Shown here: positions 7,201 through 40,942 of the stretch, piece by piece
Layout of the letters: each line of letters begins with the position of its first letter
How positions within the stretch are numbered: the stretch's first letter is position 1
From: a virus
Direction: 5' to 3' (one strand)
Virus record (IMG/VR): IMGVR_UViG_3300032288_002265
Span: 9,328 to 73,327 of that record
Length of the DNA stretch: 64,000 nucleotides
Translations under genes and position numbers: made by a program
The notes under the pieces: model-generated
Database searches by the model: none
What the model saw: the letters and a program-made list of their open reading frames with translations, nothing else
What the model was told of the DNA's origin: nothing

Positions 7201-10200
7201 CCAGGGTGCCAGCACGATCTCCGACGCCATCACCATGGGCGACCTGGAGCAGAAGAGCGATGCGCCCAAGGTGGCTCGCGACGGACTCAATGCGCTGAAC
7301 ACCGTGCTCTTCAACCTGAAGAGAATGCGGGCCGAGGCAGAGGAACTGTTCGGCAAGAAGAACATCCTCCAGAAGATCGCCGACTCGAGCTTCGAGATCA
7401 GCGAGCTCACCAAGAAGTTCGAGGACATGAACTTCATCGGGAAGGAGTTCGTGAAGGAGCTTCGCCGCTCGATCGATGAGAGCGAGGACGTTGGCGCTGG
7501 CTCGATCGCCAAGGCGATGGGCATGACGACCGGACGTAAAGCCTCGTTGCAGAACGCCGCGACCTGGATCCAGGCGAACCTCAACGCCTACACCGACGCC
7601 CTCGTGGCCTTGTCCGAGTTGGGCGTGGACTTCAAGAACACCCCGCCTGCTGACATCCTCAAGACCGTCAACGCCGCCGCAGCGACCGACGCGAGGCTGG
7701 TGCCCATGCAGGACATTGGTCGGCTCGCCATGGCCGGTCAGTTCGCCCGCCGTCGCCCGATGGTGATGGACTTTCTGGCCACCCGCAGCAGCGGTGAGGC
7801 CGGTGCCCTGCGCTCGATCATTGCGATGGCCACCAGCAGCCGTGCCGACGCCATCGAAATGGCCAAGCGCGACCTGTCGAAGCTGAAGCGGATCGGTGGA
7901 ATCGCTGCCCGCATCATCGATCAGTTGTCGGAGATGAAGGCCGAGCACCGTAAGATGCTTGACCAGGCCAAGCTGCACGCTGAGCGCGAGCAGTTCGCCG
8001 TGGATGCCGAGGCCGCGCTCACCGAGCGGATCAAGTACCTGGATCGAATGCTGCAGGTTGAGGACACCTCCGGTAACAAGCTGTGGCAACCGCACCACAA
8101 CGCCACCTACTTCGTACCGACCTCTCCGAACCAGTCGGAGGAGTCGCTCTTCGAGGACAACCCGACCTCCCAGTCGTTCCGGAAACTCCGGTTCGGCCAG
8201 GACTTCGACGGTGCCAAGGTCCGCAGCGAGCTCGCCCTGATGAAGGGATGGCTCGACGCCAACCAGAACCTGCGCGGCACCTCGAAGTACAACCTGATGA
8301 AGCGTCAGATCGACGGACTCACCAAGATGTATGCCGAGGAGGTCGACGCCAACGTGCGCCGTGGACCGTTCGGGTTCCTGGTGCGAGCCCTGGGATCCAG
8401 CGCCGACCGCCTTGAGCAGCTTGGCCTGCTGTCTGCCAAGGAGGCCGCGACAATGATCCGCCGGTACGTAGCGTCGTTTGAGCAGTCGCTGAAGTCGGTC
8501 GATGCGAAGTCGTTCCACGAATACGATGCGCTGATGCGGAAGGGAACTGAGCTCAGCGGCTTGCACCCGCTCGAGTTCAAGCGCCAGTACTACAACCGTG
8601 CGCTCGGCTACCTCGAGACCCGTCAGGATCTCCTGAATCCCACTCTCACGCAGCAGGCTCAGGAGGATCTGCTGGTGCGCGAGGCGATCCGTTTCATGGA
8701 CCAGTCGACTCCGATGAGCGACGAGTTGAAGACCACCGTGGGGAACCTGCTCCGCACGGCCGGTCGAAACGGCGAGATCATCATCGGCCGCAACCGCGTG
8801 AACTTCGGTCTGAAGGTGGCCGACGTGATGAAGGATGGTCGAGTCTACCTCCGTGAGCCCATCGGACATCCGCTGTCCACCGCCGCCCGCAGCTTGGACG
8901 AGAGTGTTCGAGTGTTGGCCAACAAGATGGAGGCTGCGTGGAAAGAGACATTCACTGCCAACGGCGAGCCTGATACTAAGCTCAAGCCGGCTACCGTCTC
9001 GGGCCTGTACACCACGGACGTGAACGCGCTGCGCTCTATCCTGGCCGGCCGGTTCACCGAGGAGGTGATGTCGAAGTTCGTGAAGCCGCTGGTCAGCAAG
9101 ACCGGCAAGACTAACTTCAAGGGGCCTGAAAGCCTTGGTGTGGTCGACATGGCCAAGCGGGAGAACCTCATCGAGGCCTACCGGCTGGCTGGTGGCGACA
9201 TCATCAAGTTCGCCGAGGAGCTTCACCGACTCGAGGGCGGCGACCCTGCCACGCTCGCTGACTTCGTTGGCGAGACGATTGGCACGCTCCAGAAGTACGC
9301 CTCGACCCTGTTCCAGGTGGCGGACACTGCCGGAAAGAACGCGGACGAGGATGCCGACCCTGGCCTGAACTTCCTGAACGCTCGCCAGGGCGAAGACTTC
9401 CCGTGGGAGTGGCTCGACTACAAGGAGTACGGCTACAAGAACCGGACTCGATACCTCCGTGTGATGGCTCAGCAGTTTGCATTCGGCGACAACCAGGATG
9501 GATTCAATCGCCTGGTCGAGGAGTCCCGCCGGCAGCTGATGAAGTTCAAGGACGAGTACGAGGATGCTCACAAGAAGCTCAACGCTGGCGACCGTGCCGG
9601 CTACGAGAAGGCCCTGAACGAGGGCGGCAACCGGATCGCCCGCCAGAACGCCCAGGCAAACGTCCTGGAGTTGAACGCCGCCGAGAAGCACCACTCCGCG
9701 CTGATGAGCGAGCTCAACGGCAACAAGCAGTCAGCCGGTGTGTTCTCCGAGATCCTGGGAGTCATCTCAGGCATGACCGTGCAGGGTCTGGCGACGGCCG
9801 CGACCGACTCGGTCACGCTGTTCGAGGCTCCGTTGCGGAAGTTCGGCTTCTCCAAAGAGGCCATCCAATTCATCGCCGGAACCTGGAAGGCGCTGGGCAC
9901 CGAGATTGCCGGCACACTGGCTCAGGCGTTCGGGATGCAGTTCCACCAGGACACCGCCACATCCCGTGAGACCGACATCCTGAACCGCAACGGCCTGGCT
10001 GACAGCGACAGTATCACCTCCAGCCGTGGCTTTGCGGCCTTGCACGAGCGGTACATCCAGGAGCTTGCCGAGGAACTGACCTTCTCGGCGATCACCGATC
10101 GGTACAAGAACGAGCGTATCACGATGGCCAAGGAGCTCGCTTCGGGCGCGGTCAAGCGCGTGGCGAAGGCTGGCAAGGTGTTCCTCGAGTCCGGTATCGG

Positions 10201-36263: not shown

Positions 36264-36818
36264 TCAAAAAGGTACATCGTCCGAACTGGCGTCGACTTCC
36301 TGCGTCACGGTGTTGCCGGACACGGTCCTCGTGCCGCCGGCCTGGACGCCGCTGGCAACCGGGGTCGCCTTGGCGATGGCCTTGGCCTTCGGACCGAGGC
36401 GTGATAGTAGGCTCGAGAGCTTCGAGGCCTCCATCGGCGCAGCGCCACCGCCGCCACCACCGGGAGGATTCAGCCACGCCACCTTGCACATGGCCTTGCC
36501 CTGGTAGGTCTCCATCTCGGTCTGGATGTTGCAGGGGCGACCGAGGAACGTGGTCTTGCCCGCGAACAGAGCGTTGAGGTCTCCGTCGAATCCGAACACC
36601 TCCTTGAGGCGGCGGATGGTGTTGTCGAACGCGCTGTCCGACAGCCACGCCCGATAGACGGCGATCTTGCCCTTGTCGACGCCCTCGGACACACGCACTG
36701 GGATGCGGATGAACGGGGTCTTTTTCTCTCCGCTCTCGCCGAACCATCCCGTTTCACCGGGGTCTTCGACGATGCACTCGTAGGAACCTGCGTGTTCGAT
36801 GTATTTGTTGCTGCTCAT
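36264..36818 (-). CDS. Phage ssDNA-binding protein (DUF669-like)
   Basis: Beta-rich N-terminus, Gly linker, acidic DDVPF tail. Confidence 0.75.
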   Translation of the reverse strand: MSSNKYIEHAGSYECIVEDPGETGWFGESGEKKTPFIRIPVRVSEGVDKGKIAVYRAWLSDSAFDNTIRRLKEVFGFDGDLNALFAGKTTFLGRPCNIQTEMETYQGKAMCKVAWLNPPGGGGGGAAPMEASKLSSLLSRLGPKAKAIAKATPVASGVQAGGTRTVSGNTVTQEVDASSDDVPF

Positions 36819-36824
36819 GTTGGT

Positions 36825-37709
36825 TTACTGAAGGGTTTCGAGTTTCTGCACAGCGGCCTTGAGGCGGTCAGGAGGGAGCGTGCCGATCAGAGGCATGGTC
36901 TTCTCCCACTGAGCCTTGGCAGCGTCGCTGAGCTTGGCGGTGGCGTACAGCGCGGTGATGCGCTCGCGGAGGGCGGACGGGCTGTTGGCCTTGATCTCAC
37001 CGGACAGGCTCTCCCAGTTGAGCGGGATGCTGTCTGGCAGGTTGAGACGGTTCTTCGCGTCCCACGCGGGGCTCCACTGGGTGTGCAGCACGCGGTCGCC
37101 GCCGATGGTCTTCTCTTTCATCGCGCCCTTCTCCTTGGTCTTGAAGACCTCGAAGACGGCGAACAGGCAGGCGTCGGGCCACTCGCGGAAGATGCCGGTG
37201 AACTTCTTGTTCCCCTTCATCTCGTAGCGATCCCACGAGTCGCCACGGGGATCCTGAAACGTGCGGATCTGGACGTGCGACAGGATGATGATCCACAGGC
37301 GCTGGGCGTGGCGGATCTGGTCGAGCTTGGCGAGCACCGACACGAGCTCCTGCTCGGCGATGGTGTAGCCCTTCCCGTATCCGTAGTCCTCGATGTTGGC
37401 CTTGCCGTCCCGTTTGCAGATGCCGTCGTAGATCATCCGCTCGAGCCAGTCGGCGGTGTCGATGACCAGCGACTTGTACTCGCCGGGGTTGGTCGCCAAC
37501 TCATCGAGGAGGGCGTTGAGCTCCTGAAGGGAGCTTGGGGAGAATCGAGCGACGTGCTCGAGACCGGTCAGACCGTCCTCGCTGCAAACGAACAGCGGGT
37601 TCGGAGCCTGGGATGCGATCGTCGACTTACCGATACCTTCGGGTCCGGCGATCAGGATGCGGGGAGGGAGCTCGGCGTCGCCGCGCTTCACTTTAGCTAG
37701 GATACTCAT
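36825..37709 (-). CDS. Sak4-like AAA ATPase / single-strand annealing protein
   Basis: GPEGIGKST, LVIDTADW, GYGKGY, DAKNR. Confidence 0.88.
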   Translation of the reverse strand: MSILAKVKRGDAELPPRILIAGPEGIGKSTIASQAPNPLFVCSEDGLTGLEHVARFSPSSLQELNALLDELATNPGEYKSLVIDTADWLERMIYDGICKRDGKANIEDYGYGKGYTIAEQELVSVLAKLDQIRHAQRLWIIILSHVQIRTFQDPRGDSWDRYEMKGNKKFTGIFREWPDACLFAVFEVFKTKEKGAMKEKTIGGDRVLHTQWSPAWDAKNRLNLPDSIPLNWESLSGEIKANSPSALRERITALYATAKLSDAAKAQWEKTMPLIGTLPPDRLKAAVQKLETLQ

Positions 37710-37710
37710 T

Positions 37711-38778
37711 TCAGTTCTGTGTGTTTTTGAGGTGGTTGAAGTAGGCCTCAAGCCCGAGGTGAACCAACGTGCCCAGACGGAGAGCCTCGGACGCCTCATC
37801 GTCTTGGATTTTGCGGACCTGCTCTTCGTAGTGCAGGAAATGGTGGCGGGCGCATCGACGAAGCGACGACGACCGCGAATTGGTCAGAAGCTGGCGTTCG
37901 CCGTCTGACTGGATCTTGAGCTCGTTGTGAGCGGACTTGGTCTTGGCAAACCGGATGCCATCGACCGAGGCGCGGCCCGAGCAGAGATCGAAGAACTCGC
38001 ACGTGCGGTTGTAGGCGTTGCACGCATTCGGATTGCGCGGCCACAACTGCTGCTTGCGGAAGTAGAGGATCTGCTGGCTCAACTGCCAGGCGTCGCTCAT
38101 GTACTCCAAGATGTCGGAGTCGAGGCGGGCGATCTCCTTCTGGGCATAGAAGTTGAACGGGTTCTCGCGCAGGACTCCCAGCACGCGGGTCTCGAACTCC
38201 TCCGGGGTCTCCGGTCGAGTCTGGACGACGTAGCCGGCCTCGGTGTCACCGGTCTCGCGCCACTTCTTGCCGTCCTTCGTCCGCACACGGTTGCCGTTCG
38301 CATCGAGTACGATCTTGGAGCCGGCCTCGTCACGCAGCGGGATCTGCGCCTGGCGTTGACCAGGCTTGCCCATCACGTCGTAGATGACGCCACCCACGTC
38401 CTGGCCGGTCTGCAACGCGCCCAGGAAGTACTTCGAGACCTGCGTGTCCATGCGAAGCCGGTCCCAGTAGTTGGACTCCGGAGCCACGTCATCGCTGGTG
38501 GTCTTGTGCTCAAGGACGATCAGCTTGCCGTCGGAGCGACGACGAAGCAGGGCGTCCATCTTGCCGGCCTCAGAGAACGAGCGGCTCGTGCCTTCGGTCT
38601 CCGGGTTCAGCAGCGGGAACGCGAACTCGCGCTCTACGTCGACGACCTGGTAGGCGCTCCAGTTGTTGCACCACACCGCGTCGTAGACGGTGACCATCGC
38701 TCGGGCCTTGGCGACCGAGAACAGATCGTCACTCTTGATTGCGGTCAGTGCGACCGCCAGTTCCTCTCTCATGCTCAT
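37711..38778 (-). CDS. PD-(D/E)XK exonuclease, circularly permuted
   Basis: VEREF...GKMD...LEHKTT, Q...Y, CNAY...CEF..LC. The usual N-terminal TNS...C.R...GTLVH.GLE block sits at the C-terminus. Confidence 0.85.
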   Translation of the reverse strand: MSMREELAVALTAIKSDDLFSVAKARAMVTVYDAVWCNNWSAYQVVDVEREFAFPLLNPETEGTSRSFSEAGKMDALLRRRSDGKLIVLEHKTTSDDVAPESNYWDRLRMDTQVSKYFLGALQTGQDVGGVIYDVMGKPGQRQAQIPLRDEAGSKIVLDANGNRVRTKDGKKWRETGDTEAGYVVQTRPETPEEFETRVLGVLRENPFNFYAQKEIARLDSDILEYMSDAWQLSQQILYFRKQQLWPRNPNACNAYNRTCEFFDLCSGRASVDGIRFAKTKSAHNELKIQSDGERQLLTNSRSSSLRRCARHHFLHYEEQVRKIQDDEASEALRLGTLVHLGLEAYFNHLKNTQN

Positions 38779-39128
38779 GGTAGTATTTCGATTACCGTTT
38801 CTTCTTGGTCTTTTTTGCTGACCTTTTCTTGTCGAATTTCGAGCTCGATAAGGTCTGGAGAATCATCCCGCAGTACGCCCCCATATCGAAGGAGGTCGAT
38901 GACGTACTTGGGGCAGACGTTGTCGGGGTCGAGGAGCCGGCAGCGCCTGCTCGTAACCACGACTCGAATGCGCGTTTTGCCTCCTTCTTTTCTCGGTGCC
39001 GCTGCCAGTGGTTCATTCCAAACAGCCGGTTGAGGCTGGGCAGTCGGTACTTGAGTGTGATCCTGAGTCCCCCTGGTGGAATGCCGTTGAAGGAACTCGG
39101 CGAGTTGCTCTTCATTCCAGCGGGGCAT
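38775..39128 (-). CDS. RusA-like Holliday junction resolvase, catalytic half
   Basis: RIRVVVTSRRCRLLDPDN..PKYVIDLL..GG.L.DDS. Confidence 0.75.
   Translation of the reverse strand: MPRWNEEQLAEFLQRHSTRGTQDHTQVPTAQPQPAVWNEPLAAAPRKEGGKTRIRVVVTSRRCRLLDPDNVCPKYVIDLLRYGGVLRDDSPDLIELEIRQEKVSKKDQEETVIEILP
38792..39115 (-). CDS. Overlapping ORF carrying a RusA-like N-terminal strand and helix
   Basis: LRITLKYRLPSLNRLFGMNHWQRHREKKEAKRAFESWL; ATG overlaps the upstream stop. Confidence 0.55.
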   Translation of the reverse strand: MKSNSPSSFNGIPPGGLRITLKYRLPSLNRLFGMNHWQRHREKKEAKRAFESWLRAGAAGSSTPTTSAPSTSSTSFDMGAYCGMILQTLSSSKFDKKRSAKKTKKKR

Positions 39129-39315
39129 TGGTGAGTTTGGATAGGACGCTCGGCCAGTGGAATCTGAGGTCTCGGTTGTTGAGCCTGACAACAGGTATCT
39201 TACCCAAGGCTGCGTACTTCCTGACACGTCTCGCGCTGTATCCGATCTTCTCAGAAAGCTCGGATACCGTAATCAACCTTTCGGAATCCAGTGGATGTTC
39301 AGAGGTTTTTTTCAT
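39112..39315 (-). CDS. Excisionase/AlpA-like winged-helix protein
   Basis: LITVSELSEKIGYSARRVRKYA..GKIP.......LRF.W. Confidence 0.8.
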   Translation of the reverse strand: MKKTSEHPLDSERLITVSELSEKIGYSARRVRKYAALGKIPVVRLNNRDLRFHWPSVLSKLTNAPLE

Positions 39316-39325
39316 GCAGCAAATA

Positions 39326-39367
39326 TGCACTCAATGTGCTCTCAAGCTGCACTCAAGGTGCGTTCAG
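39326..39367 (+). promoter_or_regulatory. Four 9-bp direct repeats at 11-bp period (operator)
   Basis: TGCACTCAA / TGCTCTCAA / TGCACTCAA / TGCGTTCAG at 39326, 39337, 39348 and 39359. Confidence 0.7.
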
Positions 39368-39394
39368 GGTCAAATGAAATTTCAAAAAAAAAGA

Positions 39395-40942
39395 TTACGC
39401 CGCGTGGATTGCTGAAACCGGTGCCGATCCAAAATCGGTCGATTTTCCGCCCGAAAGCTCGTGTCGAAGCATTGGATACGTCATCGCATCAAAAACGTGG
39501 ATGAGGCCACGCGCAGTCTTCTTCGGCTTGAGAGGCTCGTCCTTGCGCCCCTCGAGCATTAGGAGCGTCTCCTGAGCCCACGGGCACTGGGCTGACACCA
39601 AAATCGTGTCCTGGTGCAGCTTGCTCTGCATCATGCGAACGCGGGCCTCGATCGATCCCGCGCCCTTCGGACAGCCGATCATCTTCATCTGAGGCAGATG
39701 GTGGAGCAGGCCGGCGCGGTTGAACTCCTTCTCGAAGTCCCAGGCGTCGTAGCTGCCACCGCCGCCAGGACGCCACTGGTTCACCGCGCTGTCGTCGGCG
39801 ATGTGCTCCCAGGCCATCTTCCGACCGACGGCCTTGTTCCAGGCCAGGATCCGATCGACGATCTCGTTGGCCATGTTCTTGTAGAGGATCTTCTCGTTCA
39901 GGTGGCAGATCTCGTCGAACACGATCCAGATCGGCTCATTCTCGAGTGGAACCAACTGCATGAACACGGCGGTCGAGTACACCTGGCCAAGGTCGTAGCC
40001 GATCGCACACGGAGCCCAGGGCACCGGAGTTAGTCCGGTTCCGAGCCTGAGGTCTCCGACGATGTGTCGCTCTGCGGAGTAGTGCTGCTTGAAAAGGGCT
40101 TCTCCTGTGGGTCTTTCGATCCACTTGCCTTCGATGAGGCGAGCCCTTTCGATCGGGTCTCCCTTGACAGCCCTTTCGAGTGTTTCCAGGTAGCTGGCCA
40201 TCTCGGGCCGATGCGCGTTTTCTCGGAATGGGACATGGTAGACTGAGAAACTCTTGTCTCGTTCTCCGGTTTCGTGGTTGAAGGGCTCCTCAAAGAACAC
40301 CTGGTACACCCAGTTGCTCGGACCCTTGGGATTGCAGGTCGCCACGTACTGCTGCGGGCCTTGGATGTGGCGGCGTCGGTTCAGCTGCGCGGCGATCAGG
40401 GTGAAGTAGTCACGCCCCTCACAGTCGGTCAACTCGTCGGGCAGGATGAACGACGGGTGAATACCCTTGATGCGTCCAGCGATCGCCTCGGCGTACGGAA
40501 TGGCGATCTGGAGGATCGTCGACCATCCACCGTGCCGGTTACCCACCTTAAGGATTCGGTCCTTTGTGTTCGGGTCCAGCTTCGAGGGGATCCACTCCAT
40601 TCCGATACCTTCCTCCCAGGCTGGCAGGATCAGTGTCTCCAGGTCATGGATCACACCGAACTTACCGGTACGGATGGATGGGGTGACGATCAGACCGAGG
40701 GCATCCCAGTTCTCGTAGACGTGCCGCACCATCTTGTGCTCGGCACCGATGGACTTGCCTGAGCCCTTCTCGCCGTAGGCCAGAATGAACGGCGCGGCGT
40801 CGTTGAAGATCTTCAACTGTGTCGGGTTGAGATCAGGCATCCACACCTTGGTGGAGGCGGGGCGGGGCTTGTGGTCTGGATTAAAGTCCAGCTCCAGCGA
40901 GGCAAGGGCCTCCAGTTCTTCGTCGCTTGTCCTAGACGGCAT
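39395..40942 (-). CDS. terL: Terminase large subunit
   Basis: LNPTQ, Walker A GEKGSGKS, Walker B ILPDE, TCNP motif, RNase H-like GYDLG...HVFDAMTY. Confidence 0.9.
   Translation of the reverse strand: MPSRTSDEELEALASLELDFNPDHKPRPASTKVWMPDLNPTQLKIFNDAAPFILAYGEKGSGKSIGAEHKMVRHVYENWDALGLIVTPSIRTGKFGVIHDLETLILPAWEEGIGMEWIPSKLDPNTKDRILKVGNRHGGWSTILQIAIPYAEAIAGRIKGIHPSFILPDELTDCEGRDYFTLIAAQLNRRRHIQGPQQYVATCNPKGPSNWVYQVFFEEPFNHETGERDKSFSVYHVPFRENAHRPEMASYLETLERAVKGDPIERARLIEGKWIERPTGEALFKQHYSAERHIVGDLRLGTGLTPVPWAPCAIGYDLGQVYSTAVFMQLVPLENEPIWIVFDEICHLNEKILYKNMANEIVDRILAWNKAVGRKMAWEHIADDSAVNQWRPGGGGSYDAWDFEKEFNRAGLLHHLPQMKMIGCPKGAGSIEARVRMMQSKLHQDTILVSAQCPWAQETLLMLEGRKDEPLKPKKTARGLIHVFDAMTYPMLRHELSGGKSTDFGSAPVSAIHAA

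Follow-up and report, generated by a model that had tools for sequence, protein, structure and literature searches.

A putative RusA-type resolvase of phages split across two almost fully overlapping reading frames

RusA (Pfam PF05866; E. coli RusA, PDB 1q8r) is a Mg-dependent Holliday junction resolvase in which a single polypeptide, with a four-stranded mixed sheet flanked by two helices, forms a homodimer. Its elements follow the order strand-P.S.N-helix-strand-basic run-D.DN..K...D-helix-DD-two strands, and in the E. coli enzyme the catalytic residues are D70, D72, D91 and K76, with N73 and S13 at the DNA (PMC1636454). Two other kinds of system are relevant here. Genes with programmed -1 ribosomal frameshifting (dnaX, the phage tail chaperone G/GT and IS3 orfAB) have two same-strand overlapping frames related by -1, with related functional parts in each. 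Overprinted phage gene pairs, of which lambda Rz/Rz1 seems to be an example, produce two proteins from the same DNA in different frames, both needed for one function and expected to bind each other. We analyzed a stretch of 64,000 nucleotides (here, the window) from the virus record IMGVR_UViG_3300032288_002265 (positions 9,328 to 73,327), in which a RusA-like resolvase had been predicted to be divided between two overlapping frames. Both open reading frames, A and B, were confirmed and are located on the minus strand, which the original prediction did not state (Table 1). B is the -1 frame of A. The element order is that of RusA, but the two halves are in different frames with separate starts, the helix-strand loop is gone, each chain carries a long extra segment that is the out-of-frame reading of the other half, and B has an added N-terminal motif. 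In contrast to the frameshifting genes, the overlap spans almost the whole gene rather than a short stretch, the downstream frame has its own conserved start and N terminus, and the two functional segments overlap on the same bases. Compared with overprinted pairs such as Rz/Rz1, the two products appear to be halves of one ancestral domain rather than a new protein written over an old one, and the overlap is reciprocal, each functional half lying over the spacer or tail of the other.

Table 1. Coordinates of the features of the locus within the window (rel 0 is the first Asp of DPDN, at 38930)
Coordinates	Strand	Feature	Remarks
39112..39330	-	Upstream neighbor	72-aa HTH protein (excisionase- or small-terminase-like)
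39112..39128	-	Shared initiation region	B's ATG (39126-39128); A's ATG (39113-39115) 13 nt downstream; TGA of the upstream gene (39112-39114) forming ATGA with A's start
38792..39115	-	Frame A ORF	107 aa plus stop; 16-aa leader, RusA-like N-terminal half, basic S/T/K/R-rich tail
38954..39070	-	A core (rel -140 to -24)	Strand beta1 (LRITLKY), PSLN, HW, Arg, Lys and helix alpha1 ending in AFESWL
38795..38953	-	A tail	Out-of-frame reading of B's core
38775..39128	-	Frame B ORF	117 aa plus stop
39084..39128	-	B N-terminal motif	MPRWNEEQLAEFLQR; family pattern M(P)RWT.EQL..Y..R
38976..39083	-	B spacer	Out-of-frame reading of A's core
38987..38990	-	A_AAG in frame A	Possible -1 slip site in this copy
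38778..38975	-	B core	Strand beta2 (RIRVVVTS), RR.R, LLDPDN..K...D, helix, DD and two strands; RusA-like C-terminal half with the catalytic-type acidic residues
38954..38972	-	Dual-coded stretch	Frame A: A-F-E-S-W-L (family [A/D]F.SAL, end of the helix); frame B: R-I-R-V-V-V (family R[VIF].[VI].[VI], start of the strand)
38775..38778	-	ATGA overlap	B's stop with the start of the downstream nuclease gene (ATG 38776-38778); A's stop (38792-38794) lies 14 nt upstream
37711..38778	-	Downstream neighbor	PD-(D/E)XK nuclease
36825..37799		AAA_24 ATPase	Same recombination module as the nuclease

The layout is not restricted to this virus. Using frame B as the query, 12 viral loci and 147 metagenome relatives were found, of which the best 80 were kept. 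In the 63 non-redundant loci (below 90% nucleotide identity), the layout recurs without indels, and PSxN lies exactly 110 nt before DxDN in the +1 frame relative to B (P in 62/63, S in 63/63, N in 63/63 and W in 59/63). It was also present in 3 of 3 Verrucomicrobia genome loci, and a diverged GenBank phage (BK063671.1) keeps it with one codon less between the motifs. A tblastn match to a Vibrio phage lay on the strand opposite the annotated genes and was discounted as chance. Splitting one domain over two frames is what a frameshift error looks like, and one database protein (P0003, from a 924-nt contig), which reads A fused to B, shows that contigs with different frames exist. However, a sequencing artifact or a recently broken RusA pseudogene is contradicted by the comparative data, as the same layout recurs at 40 to 50% protein identity, with purifying selection in both halves. 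Contigs of two other DNA runs cover the locus without insertions or deletions, although one of them is near-identical and may be the source sample, and 14 DNA runs hold at least 0.87 of the sampled words.

Variability by codon position indicated that selection is frame specific in each half. Across rel -138 to -61, mean entropy was 1.47, 1.20 and 0.90 bits for frame A codon positions 3, 1 and 2, respectively, while across rel 0 to +131 it was 1.04, 0.87 and 1.48 bits for frame B positions 1, 2 and 3. From rel 0 onward, the second position of frame A is the most variable, i.e., the tail of A shows no amino acid selection, and neither does the spacer of B in frame B. In the A core, Ser (-107) is found in 63/63 loci and uses both AGY and TCN codons, with K and L in 61/63 each; Arg (A, -71), Arg (B, -42) and Ser (B, -21) also use two codon families. 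Frame A is under selection down to the Leu at rel -26 (38954-38956) and frame B from the Arg at rel -42 (38970-38972), and thus about six codons serve both proteins. Within this stretch, where mean variability is lowest, B(-42) is Arg in 54/63 loci (CGN and AGA codons) and B(-33) is V/I/L in 63/63. The third base of the B(-27) codon is T in 62/63, with GTT in 32 of 32 Val, whereas Val at -33 uses GTT in only 3 of 49; this gives Leu in frame A in 61/63. The claim of the original prediction that the helix of A and the following strand of B are encoded by the same bases therefore holds. Both frames are also kept open far more often than synonymous resampling predicts. B is open in 62/63 loci (40.7 expected) and A, across rel +1 to +133, in 53/63 (27.6 expected; the other 10 loci stop earlier), while the third frame is open in only 3 to 4 of 63. 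Why A remains open for about 45 codons beyond its selected part is unclear.

Assignment to RusA rests on remote similarity. Pfam RusA matched neither frame in the window, nor any of the 63 segments of A or of B, and a six-frame search of the virus record gave no match. PDB sequence-profile searches with the A and B profiles retrieved no RusA at E<=10. Nevertheless, B segments matched two PHROG RusA-like families, phrog_34 in 43/63 members (best 1.1e-7; this copy 1.7e-3) and phrog_1682 in 39/63. A single-frame protein (L099) passes Pfam RusA (26.2 bits, cutoff 22.8) and aligns to E. coli RusA 1q8r at residues 5-116 (E 0.069). By hhalign, the A profile aligns to residues 16-51 of this protein (E 1.7e-4, probability 49%) and the B profile to residues 61-125 (E 3.3e-8, probability 95%), i.e., the matching segments lie one after the other. 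It should be noted that the link of A to RusA is weak taken alone, since the hhalign match covers 35 columns and only 1/63 A segments matched PHROG (E 0.049). The DxDN of B aligns with the DPDN of L099 and the DLDN of 1q8r. Both Asp and the Asn are conserved in 63/63 loci, K in 61/63 (one residue further along than in E. coli RusA) and the D of the DD pair in 61/63.

AF2 modeled B alone as strand-helix-strand-strand, with a helix at residues 6-17 and no secondary structure, at low confidence, for residues 18-53, and A as a long helix (residues 36-60). Residues 51-117 of the B model superposed (VIA-align) on 1q8r_A residues 52-116 (Z 4.3, rmsd 2.8, 63 aligned), but this structure ranked only fifth, tied with unrelated beta-alpha-beta folds (4-OT/MIF), and Foldseek of the B model against the PDB found nothing at E<=1e-3. 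A complex model of the A core with the B core scored 0.65, against a best of 0.02 among three controls, a mark reached by 58 of 80 solved complexes and 2 of 110 mismatched pairs; our own alignments were used, so these counts hold only roughly. The runs agreed in at least 98% of contacts, the partner's pLDDT was at least 83, and A residues 1-16 touch B residues 62-68. However, the result may reflect the model's memory of single-chain RusA structures rather than real binding of two chains.

Each frame has its own ATG. In the 18 loci of the subgroup where both ATGs could be assigned, that of A lies 13 to 37 nt after that of B in 17 and 97 nt in one, and in four loci (L006, L008, L010 and L013) A's start follows directly on the stop of the upstream gene. 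The N-terminal motif of B is conserved at the amino acid level in 16 diverged loci, with the third position of frame B the most variable, while frame A carries stops here in many loci; two 117-aa homologs (P0001 and P0002) start with the same MPRWNE. No clear Shine-Dalgarno motif precedes either start in this copy, and a scan of the 18 loci was inconsistent (7/18 for B and 4/18 for A), which gives no help either way.

The original prediction offered two readings, a two-chain resolvase from overprinted genes or unusual recoding, and the first is the better supported. With moderate confidence, we propose that the locus encodes a RusA-type resolvase as two separately initiated chains made from one initiation region that associate noncovalently, with the beta1 strand of A pairing with the last strand of B and the helix of A packing on the sheet of B. 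By analogy with RusA, the rebuilt fold would then dimerize (A2B2) to cut junctions. Separate translation, assembly, stoichiometry and nuclease activity are all inferred, in the absence of expression, protein-level or activity data. RNA-library contigs cover 39121-39324, 38500-38694, 38511-38669 and 38808-38968, not the candidate slip region, and show neither transcription for certain, nor frame, nor slippage.

A single chain produced by recoding, in which ribosomes start in frame A and shift -1 into frame B (or RNA polymerase adds a base) near rel -60 to -45, perhaps at low efficiency to limit nuclease output and alongside the unshifted products, appears unlikely, although it is not excluded. 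The A_AAG site of this copy could allow such a shift, AAAG or AAAA sits at this position (-59) in 20/63 loci, and the region is Lys/purine rich in many of them. In addition, P0003 reads HWQR fused to TPRKEGG..., as if one base had been added, but it carries a second shift that runs into the next gene (and so lacks the last strand), which suggests contig errors. An X_XXY_YYZ heptamer between rel -74 and -24 was found in only 7/63 loci, at four different positions, and RNAalifold predicted 0 pairs across rel -90 to +29, pseudoknots and regions further downstream not being considered. Furthermore, frame A is still under selection 20 to 35 nt downstream of any such site and frame B upstream of rel -26, so that a fusion loses either the end of the helix or the start of the strand, and no single frameshift can deliver both segments. 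The start and N-terminal motif of B, and its frame being kept open through A's core, also argue against recoding. A ribosome that translates frame A to about rel -24, moves back about 19 to 22 nt and continues in frame B would yield a full-length RusA with a complete helix and strand. However, such a mechanism appears to be without precedent, no conserved take-off or landing sequence or RNA structure was found in the regions examined, and it explains neither the start and N-terminal motif of B nor the long open tails, making this possibility very remote.

It is also doubtful that B alone is the working nuclease, with its N-terminal helix standing in for the missing parts and A being a separate small protein, such as a regulator or inhibitor, that happens to retain RusA-like motifs. 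All the catalytic-type residues do lie in B, which has an extra conserved helix, and the similarity of A to RusA is weak by itself. However, B lacks the equivalents of RusA residues 1-51, the part in which DNA contacts are placed around S13 (PMC1636454), and A keeps exactly those motifs under strong selection. The complex model places the strand and helix of A against the sheet of B with high confidence, while in the AF2 model of B the N-terminal helix is joined to the core by a low-confidence spacer.

None of the 149 best representatives (out of 2891 with E<=1e-3) carried PSxN..W in frame with B, although more distant single-chain forms, such as L099, surely exist. All 17 sequences fetched with the A profile in a search for longer proteins were A-frame ORFs with out-of-frame tails. 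It seems slightly more likely than not that this is an obligately two-chain resolvase, in which one ancestral domain was split at the helix-strand loop, and that the arrangement is fixed across a family of more than a thousand protein clusters in phages of Verrucomicrobia-like hosts, with gene callers always missing one half. The route to the overlap would then be a frameshift in an existing gene rescued by fragment complementation. Our full-text searches found no report of such an arrangement for RusA or any resolvase, and the only hit linking RusA to frameshifting cites a ruvC gene product paper. Annotation pipelines call only A or only B, as "hypothetical," and a widespread phage resolvase (2891 representative clusters at E<=1e-3 and 1189 at E<=1e-10) would therefore be invisible. 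Two cultured Verrucomicrobium isolates carry the locus. As for the genomic context, the locus sits in a phage recombination/replication module. The upstream gene product gave MerR/HTH_17 matches below the Pfam cutoffs and matched phrog_66 (excisionase, 1.1e-4) and phrog_57 (small terminase, 7.5e-4), while the downstream genes matched PDDEXK_1 (7.8e-11) and AAA_24 (6.6e-42).

This locus lies on the minus strand of a 73-kb virus record from IMG/VR, with an estimated completeness of 69%, inside a block of recombination and packaging genes that includes an AAA_24 ATPase, a PD-(D/E)XK nuclease, a 72-aa HTH protein and the large terminase. The original prediction, that a RusA-like resolvase is apparently split between two overlapping reading frames, was correct in all its coordinates and motifs. 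Frame A (107 aa) reads a 16-aa leader, then LRITLKY-RLPSLN-RLFGMN-HWQRHREKKEAKRAFESWLRAG, and ends in an S/T/K/R-rich tail. Frame B (117 aa), which is the -1 frame of A, reads MPRWNEEQLAEFLQR, followed by a Pro/Gln/Ala-rich stretch and then RIRVVVTSRRCRLLDPDNVCPKYVIDLLRYGGVLRDDSPDLIELEIRQEKV...ETVIEILP. The ATG of A forms an ATGA with the stop of the HTH gene, and the stop of B forms an ATGA with the start of the nuclease gene. Hereafter, relative positions (rel) are counted from the first Asp codon of DPDN, i.e., rel 0 is window position 38930, and rel x is 38930 minus x.

Coordinates of the split locus and its neighborhood (window positions)
Feature	Position	Strand	Size
Protein without Pfam or PHROG hit	36264-36818	-	184 aa
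AAA_24 ATPase	36825-37799		
PD-(D/E)XK nuclease	37711-38778		
Frame B	ATG at 39128, stop at 38775	-	117 aa
Frame A	38792-39115	-	107 aa
Stretch read in both frames under selection	38954-38972	-	about six codons
AAAG/AAAA-type 4-nt site (rel -59)	38987-38990	-	4 nt
HTH protein	39112-39330		72 aa
Large terminase	39395-40942		

This organization is a family trait, and an artifact appears extremely unlikely. Frame B, used as a query, recovered database proteins that start with the same MPRWNE (P0001 and P0002). An alignment of frame B retrieved 12 viral loci and 147 metagenome relatives, of which the best 80 were kept. In essentially all of the 92 loci, the +1 frame relative to B is open and encodes M-(strand)-[VL]PS[LW]N-..-[HP]W.R...K......AF.SAL.A. 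After removing loci without enough flank, duplicates, one locus with one extra codon (L012) and sequences at 90% nucleotide identity or more, 63 loci remained, in which PSxN starts exactly 110 nt, and Trp 77 nt, before DxDN, with no indels. The same layout was found in 3 of 3 genome loci, belonging to Verrucomicrobium sp. BvORR034 and BvORR106 and to a subdivision-3 MAG, and, with one codon less spacing, in the GenBank phage BK063671.1 (12539-12826). In the latter record, only the A-frame ORF is annotated, as a hypothetical protein, while the B frame (MRWTEEQYQDFLRRR...RLADSDG...DD) is unannotated. Incidentally, the host of this phage is labeled as Methanomicrobiales, whereas the genome loci found here are from Verrucomicrobia. 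The virus is widespread. Fourteen DNA runs, mostly labeled freshwater, lake or estuary metagenomes, contain at least 0.87 of the words sampled at window positions 38500-39500, and five RNA-library runs hold parts of it. Contigs of two DNA runs, one of which may be the source sample, cover the locus with no insertion or deletion.

The per-site entropy of the ungapped alignment of the 63 loci switches phase along the locus. Between rel -138 and -61, the values are 1.47, 1.20 and 0.90 for frame-A codon positions 3, 1 and 2 (frame-B positions 1, 2 and 3), respectively, indicating coding in A, while between rel 0 and +131 the values for the same positions are 1.04, 0.87 and 1.48, indicating coding in B. 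The flanks, with ca. 1.9 at every position, are unconstrained. Selection at the amino acid level is shown by residues that are kept through two codon families. In A, these are the Ser of PSxN, present in 63/63 loci (AGY in 46 and TCN in 17), and the Arg at -71, in 59/63 (CGN and AGR). In B, they are the Arg at -42, in 54/63 plus 6 Lys (CGN in 48 and AGA in 5), and the Ser at -21, in 58/63 (AGY in 46 and TCN in 12). Frame-A selection continues to the Leu at -26 (61/63). To give that Leu, the overlapping B codon at -27 has T in its third position in 62/63 loci and is GTT in 32 of 32 Val codons, in contrast to the Val at -33, which uses GTT in only 3 of 49. Frame-B selection begins at the Arg at -42 and the V/I/L at -33 (63/63). 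So, about six codons are read in both frames under selection, as the end of the helix in A ([A/D]F.SAL) and as the start of the strand in B (R[VIF].[VI].[VI]), and a single -1 shift anywhere would lose one of the two.

Outside their selected parts, each frame shows no amino acid constraint but is kept open. B is open across rel -141 to -43 in 62 of the 63 loci, against 40.7 expected by synonymous resampling, and A is open across rel +1 to +133 in 53, against 27.6 expected, while the third frame is open in 3-4 in either span. One RNA-library contig (X16), which has a depth of only 3.6 and may therefore contain an error, differs at window position 38937 by C>T on the plus strand, a change that is synonymous in frame B (CGG to CGA) and Gly to Asp in the tail of A, which fits with B alone being constrained there. 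Some A chains among the database proteins (P0010, P0011, P0017, P0019, P0020 and P0022) carry an insertion of 15 to 20 residues between strand beta1 and PSWN (for example, ...IPSFLSKSKDDEKLLPCVPSWN), a structured-looking addition in frame A that simply lengthens the spacer of B.

The relation to RusA is remote. The Pfam RusA model matches neither half, and searches against PDB sequence profiles found nothing. However, PHROG RusA-like families match 43/63 and 39/63 of the B segments (best E value, 1.1e-7; this copy, 1.7e-3), although only 1/63 of the A segments. We also found a single-frame protein that acts as a bridge (L099, 128 aa, from GenBank MT838627.1), which passes Pfam RusA at 26.2 bits (cutoff, 22.8) and aligns to Escherichia coli RusA (1q8r) at residues 5-116 with an E value of 0.069. 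By hhalign, the A profile aligns to residues 16-51 of this protein (E value, 1.7e-4; probability, 49%) and the B profile to residues 61-125 (E value, 3.3e-8; probability, 95%). In L099, the Asn of PSLN and the Asp of DPDN are 50 residues apart by our count, while here they are separated by 101 nt, about 34 codons. The split family is therefore about 16 codons shorter on the DNA, which we infer is roughly what a lost loop plus a shared stretch of 6 to 8 codons would remove.

The structure models are consistent with this picture. The AF2 model of full B (mean pLDDT, 74.7) has a helix at residues 6-17, no structure over residues 18-53, and then strand-helix-strand-strand. VIA-align places B residues 51-117 on residues 52-116 of 1q8r_A (Z, 4.3; rmsd, 2.8; 63 residues aligned), although only at rank 5 and tied with other beta-alpha-beta folds. 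The AF2 model of A (mean pLDDT, 71.9) gives a confident helix over residues 36-60, covering HW through the dual-coded stretch. The catalytic-type residues lie in B, with D, D and N in 63/63 loci, K in 61/63 and the D of the DD pair in 61/63, while the Ser that contacts DNA in E. coli RusA (PMC1636454) has its counterpart in A. That B acts alone, with A as an accessory protein, seems doubtful.

Both frames have ATGs close together, 13 nt apart here and 13 to 37 nt apart in 17 of the 18 loci where both could be assigned. The N-terminal motif of B (M(P)RWT.EQL..Y..R in this subgroup, with FPNAS- and GY...G.W-type motifs in others) shows frame-B codon-position selection and lies where frame A often has stops. 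In four of the related loci (L006, L008, L010 and L013), the start of A follows directly on the stop of the upstream gene. A fusion of both parts by frameshift or slippage, although possible in this copy, is not supported as the mechanism of the family and seems unlikely. A canonical slippery heptamer occurs in only 7/63 loci, at four different positions, and the best 4-nt site (AAAG/AAAA at rel -59, present in this copy) occurs in 20/63, while RNAalifold finds no conserved pair within rel -90 to +29. Re-reading of the shared bases would be a remote possibility. One 128-aa database protein (P0003, from a 924-nt metagenome contig) does read A fused to B, at HWQR/TPRKEGG, but then it shifts again and runs into the downstream nuclease gene, i.e., it is either a contig with two indel errors or a natural variant. 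Different apparent fusions can be expected from gene callers, since a small downstream gene (MTR..LI.AYW..C..SWNR.AFDVF...LRQYI.MGTT) is in frame with B, with no intervening stop, in loci L034/L037, while it is in frame with A in L043, L044, L046, L048, L076 and L078. No close single-chain form turned up, since all 17 sequences retrieved from a search for longer proteins with the A profile are A-frame ORFs with out-of-frame tails, and none of the best 149 of 2891 representatives of the B family has PSxN..W in frame.

A model of the A core with the B core scored 0.65 in the median run, against a best of 0.02 among 3 controls. That mark was reached by 58 of 80 solved complexes and 2 of 110 mismatched pairs, although these counts hold only roughly because our own alignments were used. 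The runs agree in at least 98% of contacts, and the pLDDT of the partner is at least 83. In the model, A residues 1-16 pair with the last strand of B, and the helix of A, including the Phe at rel -38, touches B. It should be noted that, because single-chain RusA structures are solved, this result may reflect likeness to them rather than real binding. Most likely, although with only moderate confidence, the enzyme is assembled from two separately initiated chains that together rebuild a RusA-like fold. We found no report of such an arrangement in four literature searches, and a remark in the PRFect paper that RusA/RuvC is “known to contain a frameshift” cites a 1991 paper on the ruvC gene product.

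In a subset of the relatives (loci L083, L086, L087, L091 and L093, at rel about +172 to +178, and the database proteins P0010 and P0019), frame A runs a few codons past the stop of B and ends in PPF, VPF, LPF or APF. This looks like an SSB-tip-like C-terminal motif that, if real, would give the long tail of A a purpose as a tether to a terminal peptide, although the copy studied here lacks it. Finally, the 184-aa protein beside the AAA_24 ATPase ends in ...SSDDVPF, which seems to resemble the acidic C-terminal tip of bacterial SSB, so it may be the single-strand DNA-binding protein of the phage.
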